Below are positions 2-9,316 of a stretch of 64,000 nt of DNA, in pieces. Under the pieces are notes generated by a model. It was not told the origin of the DNA and made no database searches. It saw only the letters and a list, made by a program, of their open reading frames with translations. The DNA lies in contig JAAYRL010000029.1 in assembly GCA_012518795.1 (NCBI GenBank), forward strand, positions 20,607 through 84,606, read 5' to 3'. Source of the stretch: Clostridiaceae bacterium (GTDB taxonomy: Bacteria > Bacillota > Clostridia > Saccharofermentanales > DTU023). Within the stretch, counting starts at the first letter, position 1; every line of letters begins with the position of its first letter. Made by a program: the position numbers and the translations under genes.

Positions 2-2641
2 ATTGCCCAAAGAGGTTCTTGGGAAATCAGATATGAAAGAGTAAACCCGGAGCAAGCTGCCTCAATGCTTGAATCACCTGATATCAAGAAATATGTTTCA
101 AGTCAGGAAATCGGTTATGCCAAGATAGAAAGCGAGAATCCATATAAGCCGTATCTTTATATCATGGGTGTCAGCTCTGACTTTACGGATATCGTTCCGT
201 TGTATTTAACTGAAGGTAAAATGCCTAGTGAGCCGAATGAAATTATTTTACCGCAACATTTTTTAGACAGCAGGCTAGAAAAATTTGAAATTGGCGATCA
301 GTTAAATCTGGAGGTAGGAAAACGATTTTTGCTCGACGATAGATTGGATTATACAGGTAATGCAGGTAGTGAAATTGTAAACGAAGAACCAGTAGATTAC
401 TCACAAGAATTATCCCAGGATGATTCGTATTTTTTAGATGAAGAAAACCCGACTGAAGAATTAAGAGATACAGAAAGCAAAACTTATACAATAACCGGAT
501 TTTTTAAACGCTACGGTTTAGAAAATTATAGTGCACCGGGTTATACCGCGATAACGGCAATCGATCAAACTGCTGAATCTAATTTAAATAGCTATTATCT
601 GGAATTTAATAATCCAAAACAAGTTTTTGAGTTTCAGAAAAAATATCCGGTTGAAGGAACTTCTGAAGTACATAATGAATTATTAAGATATTATGGGCTT
701 AGCAGAAATGATAATTTTAATGCCACGCTTTTATCTTTAACCATTATTTTCTTAGCAATGATTCTAATCAGTTCGATTGTATTAATTAACAATGCCTTTA
801 CCATTTCTTTAGCTGAAAGAACCAAACAGTTCGGCTTATTATCCTCGATCGGTGCCAGTAAAAAACAATTGAGGCGGACAGTTTTAACTGAAGCAATGAT
901 GATTAGTTTAATCGGTATTCCGTTAGGTATATTAGGTGGATTGTTAGGTATAAAGCTAACATTGATGGTAGTTAGCGGGCTTATAAAAGACATGATTACA
1001 TCTTCAGTTGTTTCTAATGTTGGTTTAGAGCTGATAATATCAAGTAAAGCTATTATAGCGTCAGTGATAATTGCTTTATTTACAGTTTTGATTTCGGCTT
1101 GGATTCCGGCAAAACGCGCTTCACGTATCACGGTAATGGATACTATCCGTCAAACTCAAGATATAGTTGCTAAACCGGTAAAAGTTTCAAAAGTAACTTA
1201 CAAATTGTTCGGCTTGCCGGGCTATTTAGCTACCAAGTATTTCAAGCGCAGCCGAAAAAAATATCGTTCAACGATTATCAGTTTGAGCTTGAGTATTTTG
1301 CTGTTCATTTCAGCTTATACTTTCACTTCAATGATGACAGATTCGATTGAAAATATTTATTCAACTAAAGTTTCGGATTTGGAATATTATTGCAGGCCGG
1401 AAGCAGAAGATGATAGTGAAATTATAGTAGAGTTAAATACAATGCATAATCGAATCAAGGATTTAGATCATGTAACCTCGGTTAATTATACTGCCTCATT
1501 GATGCAAAATTATGTGGTGAATAAGGATAATTTAACATCTGAATATATCGAATATATACTTCAGGATCCGAATACAATGTATTATTTATACCAAATCAAG
1601 GATGGTCAACAAGAAAAATATTTGCTTTCTATTAATACCGTGTTTATAGAAGATGACATTTTTGCTGAGATGTTAGAACAGTTTAATATAGATTTGACTG
1701 AATATTTGAGTTCAACTGAATTGTTGCCGATTGTTAAAAACAATGCTTTTATATTTGATATGGCAGCTAGAAAGTATGTCACGTACGATGTCTTTAACAC
1801 AAGTAAAAAAAGTAAAATTGAAATTGAACTCGTGAATTTGCAAGATATTCCGGATAAATATTTGAGTGAAGTTATTAGCGATGAAGACTCCACAGCTGAT
1901 TCTATATTTGTTTTTAGAAATTATGCTGAAGATACAATACAAGAAGTACCTTTATCAGAAGCTTTTGAGTCAAAACAAATGATTGAAGCGGAATATTTTA
2001 CAGATAAAATGCCGAGTTTTCTCGATAATAGATCCGATATAACGCTGCTTTTCCCAATCAGTAAAATGGCCGATTTAGCAGTAGATTCGAGTTTATTCAG
2101 TATCAGTTTTCATATCAATTCAGATAATCATCAACTGACGGAAAATGCTTTAGCCCAATATAATGCTGAATTGGCAAATAGAGGTGACTATGTAAATCAT
2201 GTTGCATATCGTCAAAATAATAAGAATTTAGTAACGATAGTAAATATATTCTGTTACGGTTTTATCGTTTTGATTTCATTAATTGCTTTGACTAATGTGT
2301 TTAATACGATAACGACCAATATCAATTTGAGAACACGGGATTTCGCAATGTTGAAAAGTGTCGGCATGTCAAATAAAGGCATCCGTAAAATGATGATTTA
2401 TGAATGTCTGCTATATGGAACAAGATCACTACTGTGGGGGTTACCACTGTCACTCGGAGTTTCTTATTTGATTTACCGGGCAATTGATCGCAGTGTAGAA
2501 CAATCCTATACGATACCGTGGATAGCAATAGCAATCGTCTGTATTTCAGTGTTCCTGTTTGTTGCAATCAGCATGATTTATGCCTTACGCCAATTCAACA
2601 AAAAGAACATTCTCGAATCTTTAAAAAATGAAAACGATTGA
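2..2641 (+). CDS. FtsX-family ABC transporter permease, large double-FtsX-domain type; 5' end runs off the window
   Basis: The frame is open from nt 2 into the listed ATG at 65 (IAQRGSWEIRYERVNPEQAAS precedes MLESPD), so the gene is truncated by the window edge. Two FtsX signature blocks are present (ERTKQFGLLSSIGASKKQL and RTRDFAMLKSVGMSNKGI). Each sits in a cluster of hydrophobic helices, and a large soluble domain separates the two. Confidence 0.75.
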   Translation: MAQRGSWEIRYERVNPEQAASMLESPDIKKYVSSQEIGYAKIESENPYKPYLYIMGVSSDFTDIVPLYLTEGKMPSEPNEIILPQHFLDSRLEKFEIGDQLNLEVGKRFLLDDRLDYTGNAGSEIVNEEPVDYSQELSQDDSYFLDEENPTEELRDTESKTYTITGFFKRYGLENYSAPGYTAITAIDQTAESNLNSYYLEFNNPKQVFEFQKKYPVEGTSEVHNELLRYYGLSRNDNFNATLLSLTIIFLAMILISSIVLINNAFTISLAERTKQFGLLSSIGASKKQLRRTVLTEAMMISLIGIPLGILGGLLGIKLTLMVVSGLIKDMITSSVVSNVGLELIISSKAIIASVIIALFTVLISAWIPAKRASRITVMDTIRQTQDIVAKPVKVSKVTYKLFGLPGYLATKYFKRSRKKYRSTIISLSLSILLFISAYTFTSMMTDSIENIYSTKVSDLEYYCRPEAEDDSEIIVELNTMHNRIKDLDHVTSVNYTASLMQNYVVNKDNLTSEYIEYILQDPNTMYYLYQIKDGQQEKYLLSINTVFIEDDIFAEMLEQFNIDLTEYLSSTELLPIVKNNAFIFDMAARKYVTYDVFNTSKKSKIEIELVNLQDIPDKYLSEVISDEDSTADSIFVFRNYAEDTIQEVPLSEAFESKQMIEAEYFTDKMPSFLDNRSDITLLFPISKMADLAVDSSLFSISFHINSDNHQLTENALAQYNAELANRGDYVNHVAYRQNNKNLVTIVNIFCYGFIVLISLIALTNVFNTITTNINLRTRDFAMLKSVGMSNKGIRKMMIYECLLYGTRSLLWGLPLSLGVSYLIYRAIDRSVEQSYTIPWIAIAIVCISVFLFVAISMIYALRQFNKKNILESLKNEND

Positions 2642-2659
2642 TAATTTGAAAGTATTAAT

Positions 2660-2992
2660 GTGCACACTTTTTAAGCTTAGGCGACAATCTGACGGTTCAA
2701 CCTTAAATAGTGTGCAGGTTCTTTAATAAAACCGGTTTTTTCGGGCCATATGTGCACACTTTTTAAGCTTAGACTGCAATCTGACGGTTCAACCTTAAAT
2801 AGTGTGCAGGTTCTTTAATAAAACCGGTTTTTTCGGGCCATATGTGCACACTTTTTAAGGTTAGACTGGATTTCTCCGGTATAGGCTTAAATAGTGTGCA
2901 TGCCCTTTAATAAAACCGACTTTTCTGAGTCAAATGTGCACACTTTTTAAGCTTAGGCGGTAATCTGACGGTTCAACCTTAAATAGTGTGCA
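2660..2992 (+). repeat. Array A: 4 tandem copies (92-bp period) of a ~57-nt hairpin element with arms GTGCACACTTTTTAAG / CTTAAATAGTGTGCA
   Basis: GTGCACAC starts at 2660, 2752, 2844 and 2936, an exact 92-bp spacing. The arms are invariant and the 26-nt interiors differ between copies. The 35-nt linkers (ggttctttaataaaaccggttttttcgggccatat) are repeated. The array fills the gap between convergent genes. Confidence 0.9.
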
Positions 2993-3012
2993 TACCCTTT
3001 CTCTTGATAATT

Positions 3013-4245
3013 CTAATAATCAACTTCAAACTCTGTAGGTAAGGGATTATCATGCATATATTTGAATACGCCGCAAATTATTTGAGCGGCTTCTTCGATT
3101 AAAGCATCGTCTTGAGTAGCAGTATAGCTTGTTCTTAACAAACATTTGCCATCGGCAACTGCCGGCGGTAATACCGGATTAACATAAACTCCTGCTTCAA
3201 GCAGTAGTTTTGCTGCATACAGAGTTTGAGCTACAGTTCCTGTTATTAATGGAATAATTGGAATAATATCGTTATTACTGTCATGTACTTCAACATAGGG
3301 ACATTCTTTCAGCAATGCTCGCATTTTTGCTGTGATTTGGTGAATACGTGTAACTCTTTCCGGTTCAGAACGCAAGATACGCAAAGCTTCATGAGCTGCC
3401 GCAACCTGTCCGGGAGGAATTGAAGCACTGAAAATAAACGGTCTGGCAATATGTTTAATATAATTGATTACTCTTTCTTCGCCGGCAATACATCCACCGA
3501 GTGAAGCATAGCTTTTGGAGAAAGTATTCATGATTAAATCGACTTCATCTTCTAAGTCGAAATATTCAGCCGTACCACGGCCGTGTTTGCCCAAAACACC
3601 GAGTCCGTGGGCATCATCAACCATGATTCTGGCTTTGTATTTTTTAGCTAATTCGACTATCTTTGGAAGATTGCAAATTTCACCTTCCATACTAAATACT
3701 CCGTCAGTAACAATTAAAATACCACCGGATGTTGCTTTCTCAGAACAGCGAATCAATAATTTTTCTAAAGCATCCATATCGTTATGGGCATATTTGTAGG
3801 TTTTCGCAAAACTTAATCTAGTCCCATCAACGATACTGGCATGATTCAAGTCATCTGAGAGAATGAAATCATTCCTACCGGCAAGTGCAGAAATAACAGA
3901 AAGATTGGTTTGAAAACCGGTAGAAAAACTTAAACATGCCTCTTTCTGCAAGAATTCAGCTTGTTCACGTTCTAAATCACCATGCAATTTTAAAGTGCCG
4001 TTTAAAAATCTTGAACCTGAACAACCGCTGCCATAATGCTCAATGGCATCTTGAGCGGCTTTTTTTACGCGAGGATCGCCGGTTAAACCTAAATAATTGT
4101 TTGATCCCAGCATGATGGTCCGACGACCATCCATTTCCACTATATTATCTTGTTGGGTTGTTAATTCATGGAAATAGGGATAAACACCCATTTCTTTTGC
4201 TTGATCGACGACATAATAGTCATAACATTTTTGAAAAATATCCAT
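3013..4245 (-). CDS. PLP-dependent alpha-oxoamine synthase, serine palmitoyltransferase-like
   Basis: 410 aa. Motifs GSGCSGSRFLNGT, NHASIVDG, DDAHGLG and TFSKS (PLP lysine). By eye, end-to-end similarity is closer to bacterial Spt (Sphingomonas/Sphingobacterium/Bacteroides type) than to BioF or Kbl. SD-like gagg lies upstream of the ATG. Confidence 0.7.
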   Translation of the reverse strand: MDIFQKCYDYYVVDQAKEMGVYPYFHELTTQQDNIVEMDGRRTIMLGSNNYLGLTGDPRVKKAAQDAIEHYGSGCSGSRFLNGTLKLHGDLEREQAEFLQKEACLSFSTGFQTNLSVISALAGRNDFILSDDLNHASIVDGTRLSFAKTYKYAHNDMDALEKLLIRCSEKATSGGILIVTDGVFSMEGEICNLPKIVELAKKYKARIMVDDAHGLGVLGKHGRGTAEYFDLEDEVDLIMNTFSKSYASLGGCIAGEERVINYIKHIARPFIFSASIPPGQVAAAHEALRILRSEPERVTRIHQITAKMRALLKECPYVEVHDSNNDIIPIIPLITGTVAQTLYAAKLLLEAGVYVNPVLPPAVADGKCLLRTSYTATQDDALIEEAAQIICGVFKYMHDNPLPTEFEVDY

Positions 4246-4361
4246 TTACAAACCTCATTTACTTACTTAATATACTGTTTATTGTTGTCCGTTCCATTAA
4301 GACGATTTTTTGTTGTTAAGTATGTATTCTGTATTATACATTTTTTTTGCGAATGTTTGCT

Positions 4362-5219
4362 TTACGAAGCATACATTTTATATAAAATATAGTTTATCAA
4401 TCTGATTGGTAAAAATTTCGCAATGACTAATGCAGCACGATAGAAGAAACCGAAACTTTGGATCGGTTTAGGCCTGCGTTTTTGGGTTGTAAGTTTAACA
4501 ATACGTTTGGCCAAAGGTTCAATAGGATTCCCGGTTTTTTCATCTTTTTCCATTTTGGCGACTGAATTATAAGGAATTTTACCATAGATATTTAAGCATT
4601 CCTCGGATTCTTCCGATTTAATTCTTTTATCGGTAAAATCGGTTTTGGTATCACCCGGCATCAAAGCTACAGCTTGAATATTGAAAGATCGCAGTTCGTT
4701 ATTCAAAGTTAATACCAATTGGTTAATTGATGCTTTAGTACAGGTATAAAAACTCTGATATGGAATAGGCATCACTGCAGCTACTGATGAAACACAGAGA
4801 ATTCTGCCGCCACCGCTTTGACGTAAATATGGAACAGTTGCTTGAATCATATTAACAGTACCGAAAAAATTGACATCAAATTGCTGCTTAATATCTTCAG
4901 TAGGAGTGAGTTCGATCGGTCCGGATATACCGAAACCTGCATTGCAAATCACAATATTAAGTTGACCACATTCTGCAATAATTTGTCCAACTGCATTTTT
5001 GACGTCAGAAAGTCGAGTAACGTCACCTTTGATATGAGTTACTCCCGGTTGCAAAATTTCACGACGGCTTAATTCGTAGACTCGATAACCATCTTGAGCA
5101 AATAATTTTGCTGTGGTAAATCCGATACCGCCGGAGCCGCCACTGATAAAAACTACAGGTTGCTTATCATTCTTTCGGCTAACTGTACCGGAATTTAAAT
5201 TATCAGATTCTGTTTTCAT
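4362..5219 (-). CDS. Short-chain dehydrogenase/reductase (SDR) with hydrophobic C-terminal tail; candidate 3-keto-sphingoid-base reductase
   Basis: 285 aa. Cofactor site ISGGSGGIGFTTA, NAG motif (CNAG) and catalytic YTCTK. The C-terminal ~35 aa (FGFFYRAALVIAKFLPIRLINYILYKMY) is hydrophobic/amphipathic. The gene lies directly upstream of the Spt-like gene on the same strand. The family call is solid; the substrate is inference. Confidence 0.75.
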   Translation of the reverse strand: MKTESDNLNSGTVSRKNDKQPVVFISGGSGGIGFTTAKLFAQDGYRVYELSRREILQPGVTHIKGDVTRLSDVKNAVGQIIAECGQLNIVICNAGFGISGPIELTPTEDIKQQFDVNFFGTVNMIQATVPYLRQSGGGRILCVSSVAAVMPIPYQSFYTCTKASINQLVLTLNNELRSFNIQAVALMPGDTKTDFTDKRIKSEESEECLNIYGKIPYNSVAKMEKDEKTGNPIEPLAKRIVKLTTQKRRPKPIQSFGFFYRAALVIAKFLPIRLINYILYKMYAS

Positions 5220-5461
5220 ACGTCTTCCTTAAAAAATTAAATAATGAATTATCCTGAAAAATCATTAATTATTAGAAATTGTTGTTCAGGCAAATTATTA
5301 TTAAAAAGTCAATATTATTATAGGCGAAACATGATTGACTTATGTACAAATAGTATAAAATTAAACAAAATATAAGAAAATTCAAATCAGTTCTAATGAT
5401 TAGTAGATCATTTGTCAATAAGTCGTATTTCTAATTATATTTATGCAGATTGTTTTATTAA

Positions 5462-6865
5462 TTAATCTTTCAAATCGGCAATTTCGCCGAGATCGGGCAG
5501 CCAAACGTCAGAACCATCAATAAAAACATCGAGATTATCTTCTCTGGCAGCGGTTTGACCTGCAATAGTGCCAGGAATAGTGCCATCCAATTGACCACGG
5601 ATACTTTCGGCACGCAAAAGACAGAAATCACAAAATGTTTGAACACCGATTTTAAAATCTTCAAAAGAACAAAAAGCGGTTGGATCCTTTTGAACATAAG
5701 GGGAGATCAAGGCAATTGTTTCAGTAACTTTCAATGAGAAATAATCTGATTCGAAATATTCACGAATCAAATAATCAAAATTTTCTTTATATTGGGCAAA
5801 ATAATCCGGATTTTTCATCAGATTATGATACAGAGGACGTTTGAACATAATTTCTCCAGAAGCGGGCGTAAAAATCGGATGATTGATATAGAGTTCGGCA
5901 TCGTTGATTGGTTCCGGCATACCGAGCGAATAAGTTCCGAATGCCAGATTATAATCCCACGGCAGCATGCTGATAATTCCGTTTTCTTCATAGAGAAAAT
6001 AGTTATGTGCGTTTTTACCTAAATAACCATCAAGATTTACAACAAAAACCTGTACCGGAAAGAATTTTAAGACAGAATTAACGTTTACCGCATCTGTTAT
6101 ATTTTCTCCGGTAGATAAAACCTGCAAAGCTCGGATTAACCTTTTTTTATCCTGTTCAGTCGGATTAAATTTTGCTTTGCGGAAAATATTATCATAACTT
6201 TCCGGATTGTCGTCAATATACCTTAACGCAACATCTGCATTTTCAGCATCGATATTTTTGTAGGCCGGCTTATAGAGCTGACCATGATTAACACCGAAAT
6301 TTCTTCTGGCAAAACCTTGTTCCGGTTCTTCAATTGCCAGATAAAGTCCCCAAGCCTGATCATTAATTGTTAGCCAAACATAGCTGGTCAGAGGAGAAGG
6401 AACATCCATAAATGCCATCATGTCATAGGTAATATAAGATTTTAAATAACTGTTATCCTGAAATGAAGAATCTAGGGAGAATTTGTCTAAACCGTAATAA
6501 CTGTTGGTTACATAATGGTCAAATTCGATTTTGAAACTATAGCGTTCGGAGCCATATCTATGTGTTAGACGTAAAGAATTATTGCCTTTTGTTCTAAAAC
6601 CGACATTCTCGAAATACTCACCGTCGATTTCAATATCCGCAAGTTTATATAACTCTGCTCGCGGATCGGCAAGAATTTCATCCCATTGTTCACAGTAAAT
6701 GTTTATATTATGAACACGACTATCATCAAACAAGCGATGCTCATAGCCGGGATTTAGTCCGGCAGGAAGAATCCCCAAATTTCCGTTCATGAATAAAATG
6801 GTAAAGAGGGAAGCAACAATTAGAATTGTAATGATTATTTTGTCGATATGTTTATGTTTTAACAT
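5462..6865 (-). CDS. CotH-family protein (atypical kinase fold), N-terminal membrane anchor or signal
   Basis: 467 aa. An N-terminal hydrophobic helix (IIITILIVASLFTILFM) is followed by CotH-like blocks (FRTKGNNSL, YSFKIEFD, GLDKFSLDS, GQLYKP, NYFLYEENG..LPWDYNLAFG). Confidence 0.75.
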   Translation of the reverse strand: MLKHKHIDKIIITILIVASLFTILFMNGNLGILPAGLNPGYEHRLFDDSRVHNINIYCEQWDEILADPRAELYKLADIEIDGEYFENVGFRTKGNNSLRLTHRYGSERYSFKIEFDHYVTNSYYGLDKFSLDSSFQDNSYLKSYITYDMMAFMDVPSPLTSYVWLTINDQAWGLYLAIEEPEQGFARRNFGVNHGQLYKPAYKNIDAENADVALRYIDDNPESYDNIFRKAKFNPTEQDKKRLIRALQVLSTGENITDAVNVNSVLKFFPVQVFVVNLDGYLGKNAHNYFLYEENGIISMLPWDYNLAFGTYSLGMPEPINDAELYINHPIFTPASGEIMFKRPLYHNLMKNPDYFAQYKENFDYLIREYFESDYFSLKVTETIALISPYVQKDPTAFCSFEDFKIGVQTFCDFCLLRAESIRGQLDGTIPGTIAGQTAAREDNLDVFIDGSDVWLPDLGEIADLKD

Positions 6866-6942
6866 TTTAATTCAGATAATCAATTTATTTTGATTTTCAC
6901 AAATTATGTTGTGCAGGCATATGTAATATTGTTTCAGCTGAA

Positions 6943-7626
6943 TTAACTCATATAATCGCCGTTGTAGGAAACCATCACAGTGTGATTGACACCTTTAATC
7001 GCAGCCAATTCATTAATAAATGAACTGTCGGCTGATTTCAATCTGACCTCATAATTCAGTTCAATCTGTTCGGGCATAATTGTTTTACTCTTAAGTGAAT
7101 AACGCTTGACCGAATTGATGATATGGCTGAGAATTTCTTTTTCAACATCTTCATCAATGCAATGTACAACTAGTATATAAGGTTGTTCATGAGTTTTTGT
7201 ATTGGCAAAAATCAGCATTATTATTCCAATGAAAAAACTGCCGAACAAGGCAAGAGGAATTAAGCCTGCAGCTAGTACGATACCGACGGCAATGCTCCAA
7301 AATAAAAAAGCAATGTCGGATGGTTCTTTGATTGCAGTTCTGAAACGCACGATTGAAAGCGCACCGACCATACCGAGTGATAGAACAATATTACTGGTTA
7401 CTGCCAAAATCAAGAGTGCGGTAATCATGCTGAGAGCGATCAAAGTGATTCCAAAGCTGGCAGAATACATTACTCCTGAATATGTTTTTTTATAAATAAA
7501 AAAGATAAATATGCCGAGTACAAATGAGAGTAGCAATGTAATCAACATATCCATGAGCGGAACTGCGTTGATATTTTCTAAAAAACTTGATTTGAAAATG
7601 TCCTGAAAGGTTATGGTCATATACAT
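6943..7626 (-). CDS. DUF4956-type integral membrane protein
   Basis: 227 aa with about 4-5 TM helices. It has the block LSLGMVGALSIVRFRTAIKEPSDIAFLFWSIAVGI that I associate with DUF4956, and a soluble C-terminal domain. A good SD (aggaga) lies 8 nt upstream of the start. Confidence 0.65.
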   Translation of the reverse strand: MYMTITFQDIFKSSFLENINAVPLMDMLITLLLSFVLGIFIFFIYKKTYSGVMYSASFGITLIALSMITALLILAVTSNIVLSLGMVGALSIVRFRTAIKEPSDIAFLFWSIAVGIVLAAGLIPLALFGSFFIGIIMLIFANTKTHEQPYILVVHCIDEDVEKEILSHIINSVKRYSLKSKTIMPEQIELNYEVRLKSADSSFINELAAIKGVNHTVMVSYNGDYMS

Positions 7627-7653
7627 GAATTTGATCTCCTGTTATTTAATTTG

Positions 7654-8346
7654 TTAATCGTATTTTCTACACATAGAATATTTGGAATAAGCCGTAAGCG
7701 GACGATTGTTCAAGCAGATTGCCATCTTAACGATATCCGGTAAAAATTCATCATATTTTACTTCTAATACTGCAAGTCCATCTGAAATATCAATGTGCTT
7801 ATTTAATTGTAAGAAATTATCGGTTTTGGTCGTTGTCCTTAAGTTTCGATCTATTGTAATTCGTACATTGCCGGGGTGATAAATAAATGCCTCTCGGTCA
7901 TATGTCACGATAGTTTTCGGTTTTAATAATTGTCCTTTTAATTTTGAATAAAATTCAATTGCTAAGGCATCGTTTTTTTGTAAAAGAAAATCAATTTCCG
8001 CATTGAGAATTTGCTGAACTTCGGTTTGAGTCAACGGTACAGTTTGTTTTGCACATTTTCCGTTAATTTTTATTTTGCGTTCTAAACGGATAAAAGAAAA
8101 ATCGTTGTTATAATAGCGAATGCGGAATTTCTCTCGCTGATTGGTTCCTGATATGTTTTGGCTTAAAGCTTTATCATAAGGGGTATCAAAATATAAACTA
8201 CTCACACGGTAGTTACCGTGTGAGTCGGAATGTTTATCATGCCGGAAAAAATTTTTCAGTGTTCGACTTAGTATGAAACCGTCTGCATGATTAATATTAT
8301 ATTTTTTTTCATTACGTAATTTTAACGTTTCTTTTTTCTTAATCAT
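7654..8346 (-). CDS. VTC-domain (polyphosphate polymerase-like, CYTH-like tunnel fold) protein
   Basis: 230 aa and soluble. VTC-type landmarks: RNEKKY near the N-terminus, SSLYFDTP, FRIRYY, LERKIK and VLEVKYD. It sits in the usual VTC-DUF4956-CotH gene order. Confidence 0.65.
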   Translation of the reverse strand: MIKKKETLKLRNEKKYNINHADGFILSRTLKNFFRHDKHSDSHGNYRVSSLYFDTPYDKALSQNISGTNQREKFRIRYYNNDFSFIRLERKIKINGKCAKQTVPLTQTEVQQILNAEIDFLLQKNDALAIEFYSKLKGQLLKPKTIVTYDREAFIYHPGNVRITIDRNLRTTTKTDNFLQLNKHIDISDGLAVLEVKYDEFLPDIVKMAICLNNRPLTAYSKYSMCRKYD

Positions 8347-8455
8347 TTAAAAATATTTCCGGATGATTCAAAATAGTTTTTGTTTTATTTGTTCTTAGAT
8401 CAGTTTTAATTTAGATTTTTTCAGATAGTGATTATTAATTAGTGATTATATAATC

Positions 8456-9316
8456 CTAATCATCATAGTCCGAATCCTCATAATCTGAATTATCTGCTAT
8501 GGGAGCAGCAGTCGGTGCAGCTGTCGGAGCATAATCCGTTTCATCATAATCGGTGTAATCTTCAGTCGTAGCAGCTGTCGGAGCGTAATCTGTCTCATCA
8601 TAATCAGTATCATCTACTGTCGGATCGTAATCTGTTTCATCATAATCGGTGTCATCTACTGTTGGGGCAGTAGTTGGATCATAATCTGTTTCATCATAGT
8701 CCGTTTGATCTTTGGTAGTTGGTACAGTAATTGTTATAGCATTGCTGTCATCTTTATTGTCTTTTTTACTATCTTTATTGTCTTTATGATTATTATCTTT
8801 ACTTTCTTTATCATTATTATCTTTATTGTTAGTGTCAAGTTCTACATCAAGATTTAATTCACTAACTTTTTCTTCGACAGCTTTTCCGATGTTAACGATA
8901 AAATCTTCATTCGGCAAGTAAGAACCTTCCTTTAATTCTAAAGTTAGAGTTTTAGCCTGGCTGCCGACTTCATGAACAAAATATCCGGCAGTATTGATTT
9001 TATCAACTAATTCTTGAAGAACGACAGTTGAATCTTTGCCGATATAATTATCATAACCTTTTACAAGATTTGTACCATCTTTGTTTGTACCACGTACATC
9101 GGTAACCTTACCATTTTTATCATATTCAATTTCAATTTTCGGATTTATTGAAAGTACGATTACACCTCTTTCAGAATCAGTATCTATTTCTTCTAATTTA
9201 GTATTTGACTTTGTTTGGCTACCGCAACTTGTGAGTAAAAGTACCAATAATAACGCTGTGAGGGAAAGTGCCAATACTATCGAAATGATTCCTAATAAAT
9301 TTAATTTTTTATTCAT
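8456..9316 (-). CDS. Lipoprotein with lysine/aspartate-rich linker and C-terminal acidic Asp/Tyr/Thr repeat tail
   Basis: 286 aa. Signal peptide plus lipobox (LLLTSCGS). The linker reads NNKDNNDKESKDNNHKDNKDSKKDNKDD. It is followed by about 8 copies of (T/S)DYDETDYD(P/A)T-like repeats running to the C-terminus. Strong SD aaggag. Confidence 0.7.
   Translation of the reverse strand: MNKKLNLLGIISIVLALSLTALLLVLLLTSCGSQTKSNTKLEEIDTDSERGVIVLSINPKIEIEYDKNGKVTDVRGTNKDGTNLVKGYDNYIGKDSTVVLQELVDKINTAGYFVHEVGSQAKTLTLELKEGSYLPNEDFIVNIGKAVEEKVSELNLDVELDTNNKDNNDKESKDNNHKDNKDSKKDNKDDSNAITITVPTTKDQTDYDETDYDPTTAPTVDDTDYDETDYDPTVDDTDYDETDYAPTAATTEDYTDYDETDYAPTAAPTAAPIADNSDYEDSDYDD

Follow-up and report, generated by a model that had tools for sequence, protein, structure and literature searches.

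A candidate two-gene sphingoid-base module in a Saccharofermentanales genome: a serine-palmitoyltransferase-type synthase next to a KdsR-like reductase

At present, Bacteroidota and some Proteobacteria are taken to be almost the only makers of the sphingolipids found in anaerobic and host-associated communities. The described enzymes closest to the locus studied here are the serine palmitoyltransferase (SPT) of Sphingobacterium multivorum (SmSPT), together with the CFB-type Spt proteins of NCBIfam model NF047600 (BT_0870 in Bacteroides thetaiotaomicron), and the B. thetaiotaomicron reductase KdsR (BT_0972; NF049977; Lee et al. 2022, PMC9278070). A further system, the Caulobacter-type ceramide pathway of Stankeviciute et al. 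2022, runs over Spt, bCerS and CerR in the outline given in PMC11087976. We analyzed a stretch of 64,000 nucleotides (the window) from a Clostridiaceae bacterium of the order Saccharofermentanales (GenBank assembly GCA_012518795.1, contig JAAYRL010000029.1, positions 20,607 to 84,606 of the forward strand), in which the gene for an alpha-oxoamine synthase (AOS) lies beside the gene for a short-chain dehydrogenase/reductase (SDR):

3013..4245, minus strand: spt-like gene, 410-aa pyridoxal-phosphate (PLP)-dependent AOS of the SPT clade (open reading frame, Pfam, NCBIfam, PDB and tree)
4362..5219, minus strand: kdsR-like gene, 285-aa classical SDR, candidate 3-ketosphinganine reductase (open reading frame, Pfam, NCBIfam and AlphaFold2 model)

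The pair consists of known kinds of enzyme in an unrecognized host group. It is an ordinary example of a module that is widespread, in this case from a biogas-reactor lineage. With a probability of roughly 0.7, the two genes would form a sphingoid-base module, most likely making sphinganine. The evidence for this is homology, active-site conservation, phylogenetic placement, linkage and co-occurrence, from which we infer substrates, products, cofactor and co-transcription.

An initial annotation of this DNA had given the region of the pair, the shared strand, the size of the synthase and the motifs of both proteins, all of which were recovered from the open reading frames. The AOS contains GSGCSGSRFLNGT, NHASIVDG, DDAHGLG and TFSKS, the SDR contains GGSGGIG and YTCTK, and Pfam places the two proteins in Aminotran_1_2 (E 2e-54) and adh_short (E 1e-40), respectively. 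Like SmSPT and the CFB-type Spt, the window AOS is a soluble, single-polypeptide, fold-type I PLP enzyme of about 400 residues; it is collinear with SmSPT over residues 5–396, and the PLP-binding Lys, His and Asp, the serine contacts and the acyl tunnel are identical. Unlike the Bacteroidota Spt, it falls into a Firmicute/Mollicute subclade and its host is a monoderm anaerobe without an outer membrane. The SDR in turn resembles B. thetaiotaomicron KdsR as a classical SDR of about 265–285 residues with TGxxxGIG and YxxxK motifs, whose alignment to the KdsR model runs over its full length and takes in the C-terminal helices; it is likewise paired with an SPT. Compared with B. thetaiotaomicron, the Firmicute SDR gene usually adjoins spt.

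The best NCBIfam model for the AOS was NF047600 (SPT, CFB type) with 491 bits, ahead of BioF (372), Kbl (365), the beta-proteobacterial (343) and alpha-proteobacterial (272) SPT models, HemA (252) and CqsA (198). Among PDB entries the best match was SmSPT (3A2B/8GUH) with 385 bits, followed by Thermus BioF/Kbl (254), the cysteate acyltransferase (CFAT) of C. ochracea (227) and SulA (214). Identity amounted to 49% with SmSPT and 47% with the Spt of a Paludibacteraceae genome, a control that itself scored 659.7 bits and exceeded the NF047600 cut-off.

A maximum-likelihood tree was built from 86 sequences. SmSPT, S. wittichii SPT, Thermus BioF/Kbl, C. ochracea CFAT and A. finegoldii SulA served as references from PDB alignments, supplemented by BioF and Kbl of E. 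coli K-12 and by Kbl-type paralogues from related genomes; HemA and CqsA were left out of the tree and set apart by hidden Markov model (HMM) score only. The window AOS fell into an SPT clade of 68 rows (SH-aLRT 95), which also holds SmSPT, S. wittichii SPT and the Paludibacteraceae Spt. A CFAT clade (SH-aLRT 100) is its sister, while Kbl, the Thermus-type BioF/Kbl and BioF lie outside. Grouping the Firmicute clade with Kbl/BioF, a constraint defined only once the tree had been seen, was rejected by the approximately unbiased (AU) test (delta lnL 65, p 0.0018). The Firmicute and Mollicute SPTs form one subclade of 42 rows (SH-aLRT 91) at about 47–49% identity to the Bacteroidota SPTs, a separation that speaks against their recent acquisition from Bacteroidota.

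The active site points the same way. From the crystal papers on SmSPT and CFAT (PMC10196870, PMC13692747) we picked 26 positions of the active site and acyl tunnel, and the window AOS agreed with SmSPT at 25 of them. The only mismatch, Met271 to Ile, concerns a residue whose main-chain carbonyl makes the substrate contact (PMC10196870), and Ile is common to all SPT-clade sequences except the S. multivorum reference. The PLP-site equivalents Lys244 (in the T-F-S-K-S block), His138, Asp210 and His213 are all present. Several further positions separate SPT from its relatives, and at each of them the window AOS is of the SPT type: Gly80-Ser81 (Ser/Ala-Val in Kbl), Ser243 (Gly in Kbl, Ala in CFAT), Ala274 (Asn in Kbl, Thr in BioF, an essential Lys in CFAT), Ser185 (Gly in CFAT) and the tunnel wall Tyr27/Phe28/Phe83/Leu84 (Glu-Glu at 27/28 in Kbl, Met-Met at 83/84 in CFAT). 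The serine-contact network (Asn52, Gly80, Ser81, Ser243, His138 and the PLP phosphate ligands) is invariant in 41 of 41 Firmicute-clade sequences. Judged from profile, structure, phylogeny and active site, which concur, the AOS is a serine-palmitoyltransferase-type enzyme. The initial annotation had called it Spt-like rather than BioF- or Kbl-like, and scores, clade, the residues near the PLP lysine and those of the serine and acyl pockets all bear this out; the protein groups neither with BioF or Kbl nor with AOS of the acyl-amino-acid type.

For the reductase, ranking against 18,950 NCBIfam models gave NF049977 (Bacteroides KdsR) as the best match, with 202 bits and model positions 3–267 of 267 aligned; the next model reached 168. 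The motif GGSGGIG and the residues Ser145, Tyr158 and Lys162 are invariant across 24 SDR homologues. In the same set, the C-terminus follows the pattern VG-x-Y(K/R)-x7-LP-x-R-x3-Y-x3-K-x-Y, with Gly257 and Tyr283 invariant and Pro271 nearly so. The tail had been described as hydrophobic and compared with that of the membrane-anchored eukaryotic 3-ketosphinganine reductase. Its last 30 residues are indeed hydrophobic, but they include Arg and Lys and reach a maximal 19-residue Kyte-Doolittle mean of 1.55, so that the anchor and the likeness built on it have to be given up. In an AlphaFold2 model from the 24-sequence alignment (pLDDT 91.5), the C-terminus is a helix-turn-helix (pLDDT 78–88). The best fold match of the model was human 17-beta-hydroxysteroid dehydrogenase 1 (17-beta-HSD1), a soluble lipid ketoreductase, in complex with NADP+ and estradiol (TM 0.85 over about 285 aligned residues). 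The window SDR is thus like eukaryotic KDSR/Tsc10 in being an SDR predicted for the same reaction, and unlike these membrane-anchored enzymes in that its C-terminal hairpin superposes on the substrate-tunnel helices of 17-beta-HSD1. On the basis of the model, the segment is best taken to belong to a hydrophobic substrate tunnel, which might lie at the membrane interface, rather than to anchor the protein in the eukaryotic manner. Arg52, located just past strand beta-2, is nearly invariant among the homologues; by established SDR cofactor rules, this residue and the NADP-bound fold match suggest that the enzyme would use NADPH.

The two genes recur together. In species-representative genomes the SDR gene adjoins the SPT gene at 23 of 29 Firmicute/Mollicute loci, lying upstream of it, downstream of it or on the opposite strand, and the lineages with an adjacent pair include Saccharofermentanales, Christensenellaceae, Izemoplasmatales, Haloplasmataceae and unclassified Bacilli and Clostridia. 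Adjacency was also seen at 12 of 20 further Clostridia loci from other families and at none of the 28 non-Firmicute SPT loci. Among 61 genomes of relatives, a full-length KdsR-like SDR was present in all 20 that carry an SPT vs 12 of the 41 that lack it (Fisher p 4e-8). In the isolate Inordinaticella fortuita 4B (L030 10001-11094) the SPT frame is split into open reading frames of 306 and 86 aa beside an intact KdsR-like SDR, which could reflect a frameshift, a pseudogene or a sequencing error.

Nine of the 12 SPT-negative SDR carriers encode a fusion of about 1,100 aa that joins an AMP ligase, a carrier protein and an AOS. Proteins of this kind (about 1,100–1,170 aa) combine an AMP-binding domain resembling fatty acyl-AMP ligases, a phosphopantetheine carrier and an alpha-oxoamine synthase domain. 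They were observed in ten genomes of the same family without an SPT-type gene (G020, G013, G014, G022, G023, G028, G029, G030, G033 and G035); in one example (L079, G020:C1) the AOS domain lies at about 784694-785815. Nine of these ten genomes also hold a full-length KdsR-like SDR elsewhere in the genome. The fusion may offer another way to long-chain amino alcohols.

The proposed pathway would start with the SPT-type enzyme, whose PLP would be bound to the Lys of TFSKS and which would join L-serine and a long-chain acyl thioester (acyl-CoA or acyl-acyl carrier protein) in a decarboxylative Claisen condensation to 3-ketosphinganine. The neighboring classical SDR would then reduce the 3-keto group, probably with NADPH, to sphinganine (dihydrosphingosine). 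As the genome contains no homologue of a known ceramide synthase, the long-chain base might afterwards stay free or be derivatized, or be N-acylated by an unrecognized enzyme. The genome has homologues of long-chain acyl-CoA ligases, and two genera of a sister family encode a long-chain acyl-CoA synthetase (about 570 aa) divergently from SPT and directly upstream of it (L082 2105-3841 and L083 2036-3733, both minus strand); a supply of acyl-CoA to the predicted SPT is plausible. SPT identity, KdsR as best SDR family and the recurrent linkage favor the two-step sphingoid-base module that the initial annotation had suggested.

Like the Caulobacter-type pathway, this scheme has an Spt homologue at the first step. 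Unlike it, the window genome has neither an acyltransferase of the GCN5-related N-acetyltransferase (GNAT) type nor an epimerase-family reductase beside spt. The classical SDR implies the step order of eukaryotes and Bacteroides, in which reduction would come first and acylation later, if at all. Within the SPT clade of the window AOS, the other layout was seen at four loci from Ignavibacteriota, Bacteroidota, Nitrospirota and one unclassified metagenome-assembled genome (MAG) (L020, L045, L047 and L050), where an HpnA/epimerase-family reductase gene is followed by spt and then by a GNAT of about 370 aa. At the Zixibacteria loci L032 and L036 a GNAT stands behind spt, and a reductase was not seen. 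These Spt-adjacent GNATs had no NCBIfam match and only a weak one to Pfam Acetyltransf_1; going by position, they would correspond to bCerS and the layout to the Caulobacter order CerR-Spt-bCerS. The genomes with the reductase-spt-GNAT layout that were checked are without KdsR-type SDRs. At several Anaerolineae loci (L033-L039, L043 and L048), a conserved protein of about 400 aa from an unknown family is encoded directly downstream of spt, with polyprenyl-synthase-like, IDI2-like and GTP-cyclohydrolase-like genes upstream in an order that is constant in 7–8 loci.

Several observations weigh against a sphingoid-base module. Both enzymes score below their equivalog cut-offs, the AOS with 491 bits vs 640 for NF047600 and the SDR with 202 vs 400 for NF049977. 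At this level the KdsR model is unspecific: at E<=1e-40 it also matches SDRs of Bacillus subtilis, Lactococcus lactis and Haloferax, none of which is known as a sphingolipid maker, and two SPT-negative relatives (G019 and G038) have SDRs with equally high scores. The identity of the SDR therefore rests on its linkage to the SPT gene. The Bacteroidota and Ignavibacteria genomes examined yielded no KdsR-type SDR at E<=1e-40 and carry an epimerase-type reductase instead; because the genomes examined for the SDR tree thus held no bona fide KdsR, orthology to BT_0972 is based on HMM ranking only. As to the synthase, the work on CFAT indicates that first-shell residues alone do not set amino-acid specificity (PMC13692747), and the conserved pocket is therefore no proof of serine use. 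Finally, the genome, which is 94% complete, contains no ceramide synthase of either known type, so that a complete sphingolipid pathway cannot be written. Neither tblastn nor a profile HMM recovered a GNAT-type enzyme (best E 0.09; the profile was built from six Spt-adjacent GNATs taken as bCerS orthologues from gene position only), and no eukaryotic TLC ceramide synthase (PF03798) was present.

These points are in part shared by the most serious competitor, in which the same two enzymes would make a related long-chain amino alcohol that is not a sphingolipid. Candidates are a 1-deoxy base formed from alanine or glycine and an amino-ketone or amino-alcohol with a shorter or branched chain, whose role would be that of a signal or antimicrobial and not of a membrane lipid backbone. 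SPTs accept alanine and glycine at low efficiency (PMC10196870), mutagenesis has shown that pocket residues by themselves do not fix specificity (PMC13692747), and the missing ceramide synthase and the sub-threshold scores of both proteins fit such a product. So do the fusion proteins and KdsR-like SDRs of SPT-less relatives, which suggest a wider amino-lipid chemistry in the order. The serine-contact network, which is that of SmSPT throughout the Firmicute clade, and the retained long-chain tunnel residues Tyr27, Phe28, Phe83 and Leu84 speak against it, and we regard this outcome as unlikely, though deserving serious attention.

Far less probable is a housekeeping role for the AOS as glycine C-acetyltransferase (Kbl) or in biotin synthesis (BioF), with the SDR as an unrelated neighbor. 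Such a role could be suspected because the window AOS is the only AOS of its genome, because close homologues carry the public annotation '8-amino-7-oxononanoate synthase', and because some genomes of the same genus have an AOS of the BioF/Kbl type TIGR01825 in its stead. It is largely refuted by the scores, which lie below the Kbl (365 vs 460 bits) and BioF (372 vs 426 bits) cut-offs and below the protein's own SPT score, as well as by the tree and AU test, the missing signature residues and the SDR linkage that is kept across orders. A biotin or threonine-degradation context, which the initial annotation had named as a possible explanation, was considered and rejected. No BioB homologue was found in the genome at E<=1e-3, and the only BioA-like match is 26% identical; the sole Tdh-like zinc alcohol dehydrogenase reached 198–204 bits vs Tdh cut-offs of 380–458 and matched a generic zinc-oxidoreductase model best, and is no true Tdh. 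SPT-type and Kbl-type paralogues coexist in nine related genomes, which argues that the two types are not interchangeable. Four genomes of the same genus (G002, G004, G005 and G008; L071-L074) carry the TIGR01825 AOS (609 bits, above the cut-off; 39% identical to the window AOS) and no SPT type, so that the SPT/SDR pair has a patchy distribution in the genus.

A sulfonolipid (capnine) module of cysteate acyltransferase and 3-ketocapnine reductase, which the initial annotation had allowed for, can be set aside as highly improbable: a genuine CFAT locus shares the layout of an AOS gene followed by an SDR gene of the same subfamily and then a GNAT, but the window AOS matches C. ochracea CFAT with 227 bits vs 385 for SPT, lies outside the CFAT clade (SH-aLRT 100) and lacks the residues of the CFAT-specific pocket (PMC13692747), namely the trans-subunit Lys280 (here Ala), Gly at the Ser185 position (Ser), Ala249 (Ser) and Met-Met at 83/84 (Phe-Leu). 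The CFAT locus in question (L058 10001-13258, from a Cytophagia MAG) is a compact cluster of the sulfonolipid type. Its cysteate acyltransferase scores 381 bits to C. ochracea CFAT, the SDR that comes next belongs to the KdsR/PRK06179 subfamily, and the GNAT after it measures about 370 aa. This SDR is 28% identical to the window SDR and scores 203 bits to the KdsR model; the pairing of such an SDR with an SPT-family synthase thus recurs in a second, related long-chain-base pathway.

Returning to the sphingoid-base pair, the SDR gene lies 5' of the AOS gene on the same strand, with 116 bp between them. The intervals belonging to the pair are as follows:

4246..4361, minus strand: SDR-SPT spacer, 116 bp, AT-rich, with a GAGG ribosome-binding site 7–8 nt ahead of the SPT ATG
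5220..5461, minus strand: intergenic region 5' of the SDR gene, 242 bp, with a promoter-like site and an AGGAAG ribosome-binding site

A consensus scan placed the promoter-like site, TTAATA-16-TATAAT, at 5461..5434, ahead of the SDR gene; as the scan returned 39 sites in the region vs 30.5 expected, this is weak evidence. No minus-strand terminator-like hairpin was found in the 116-bp spacer, and both genes are preceded by Shine-Dalgarno sequences (AGGAAG for SDR, GAGG for SPT). From consensus matches only, the SDR and SPT genes are probably co-transcribed as a single unit. An Rfam scan of 2500-5700 for regulatory RNA gave no match at E<=1.

The genes that flank the pair are unrelated to lipid synthesis. 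A gene for an FtsX-type ABC permease adjoins the AOS gene in convergent orientation, and upstream of the SDR gene a lipoprotein - VTC - DUF4956 - CotH operon occupies 5462-9316 (minus strand). As this operon is not kept beside the pair in the closest relatives (L001-L004), it lies outside the module. No gene for an acyl carrier protein, an acyl-ACP synthetase or a ceramide synthase was found in the flanks, in agreement with the initial annotation. The closest loci, with 92–95% protein identity and the same FtsX neighbor, come from MAGs of Saccharofermentanales/'Clostridiaceae' from anaerobic digesters, which also upholds the Firmicutes-type genome proposed earlier. Together with the G+C content at the pair, which shows no anomaly, these loci indicate that the pair is native to a Firmicute genome and not a binning artefact. 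In an empty-site comparison with short flanks, the FtsX orthologues of SPT-negative members of the genus were only about 40% identical.

Clustering of open reading frames at 54 Firmicute loci revealed no third gene (ceramide synthase, acyl carrier protein, kinase or flippase) that is conserved around spt across lineages. Neighbors are lineage-specific only: the acyl-CoA ligase in two Saccharofermentanales genera, one GT4 glycosyltransferase and the Izemoplasma genes. In Izemoplasma and related Bacilli MAGs (L008-L011) a fused MacB-type ABC ATPase/permease gene of about 740 aa stands ahead of spt-kdsR, and at L008-L010 a D-2-hydroxyacid dehydrogenase-like gene follows the pair; both are lineage-specific candidates for export or tailoring. 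At three Clostridia loci a sigma-70-family factor of about 235–248 aa with regions 2 and 4 is encoded beside the SPT gene or close to it (L016 7131-7838, L106 9061-9804 and L112 7320-8027).

The Firmicute setting stressed by the initial annotation holds, but the locus is not an isolated case. In a sample of 300 genomes spread evenly across the class Clostridia, 42 (14%) from 23 of 174 genera had an SPT-type match at E<=1e-130, a threshold at which Bacteroides thetaiotaomicron was the only positive among 14 control genomes. None of the 300 exceeded the 640-bit cut-off of NF047600, the highest score being 597; because the Firmicute SPTs remain below the NCBI equivalog cut-offs, they are annotated as generic aminotransferases or BioF. 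Among the cluster members and encoding contigs of the AOS no cultured carrier was found, only MAG records.

In the full-text literature we found no paper on SPT or sphingolipid synthesis in Firmicutes. The Bacteroides KdsR paper (PMC9278070) does not mention Firmicutes, and neither does a Black Sea survey of Spt. Looking for papers on sphingolipids of Mollicutes (Acholeplasma) yielded nothing usable. A ceramide phosphoglycerol lipid was reportedly found in Acholeplasma axanthum in the 1970s; if true, this would be an old biochemical precedent in the clade that also holds the SPT of an Acholeplasmataceae genome (L017).

At somewhat less than even odds, Firmicutes and their wall-less relatives, among them Saccharofermentanales, Christensenellales, other Clostridia, Izemoplasmatales, Haloplasmatales and Acholeplasmatales, could possess an old SPT lineage of their own, usually linked to a KdsR-like SDR, that would make sphingoid bases de novo without the known types of ceramide synthase. 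If this is true, it would amount to a third bacterial sphingolipid layout, one that ends in free or otherwise derivatized bases or uses an undiscovered N-acyltransferase, and about one in seven Clostridia species would make sphingoid lipids, so far unnoticed, in guts, rumens and digesters. Should the pair work as predicted, it would affect how the lipidomes of gut, rumen and digester are read, how sphingolipid biomarkers in sediments are interpreted, and where the missing bacterial ceramide synthase or synthases are sought.

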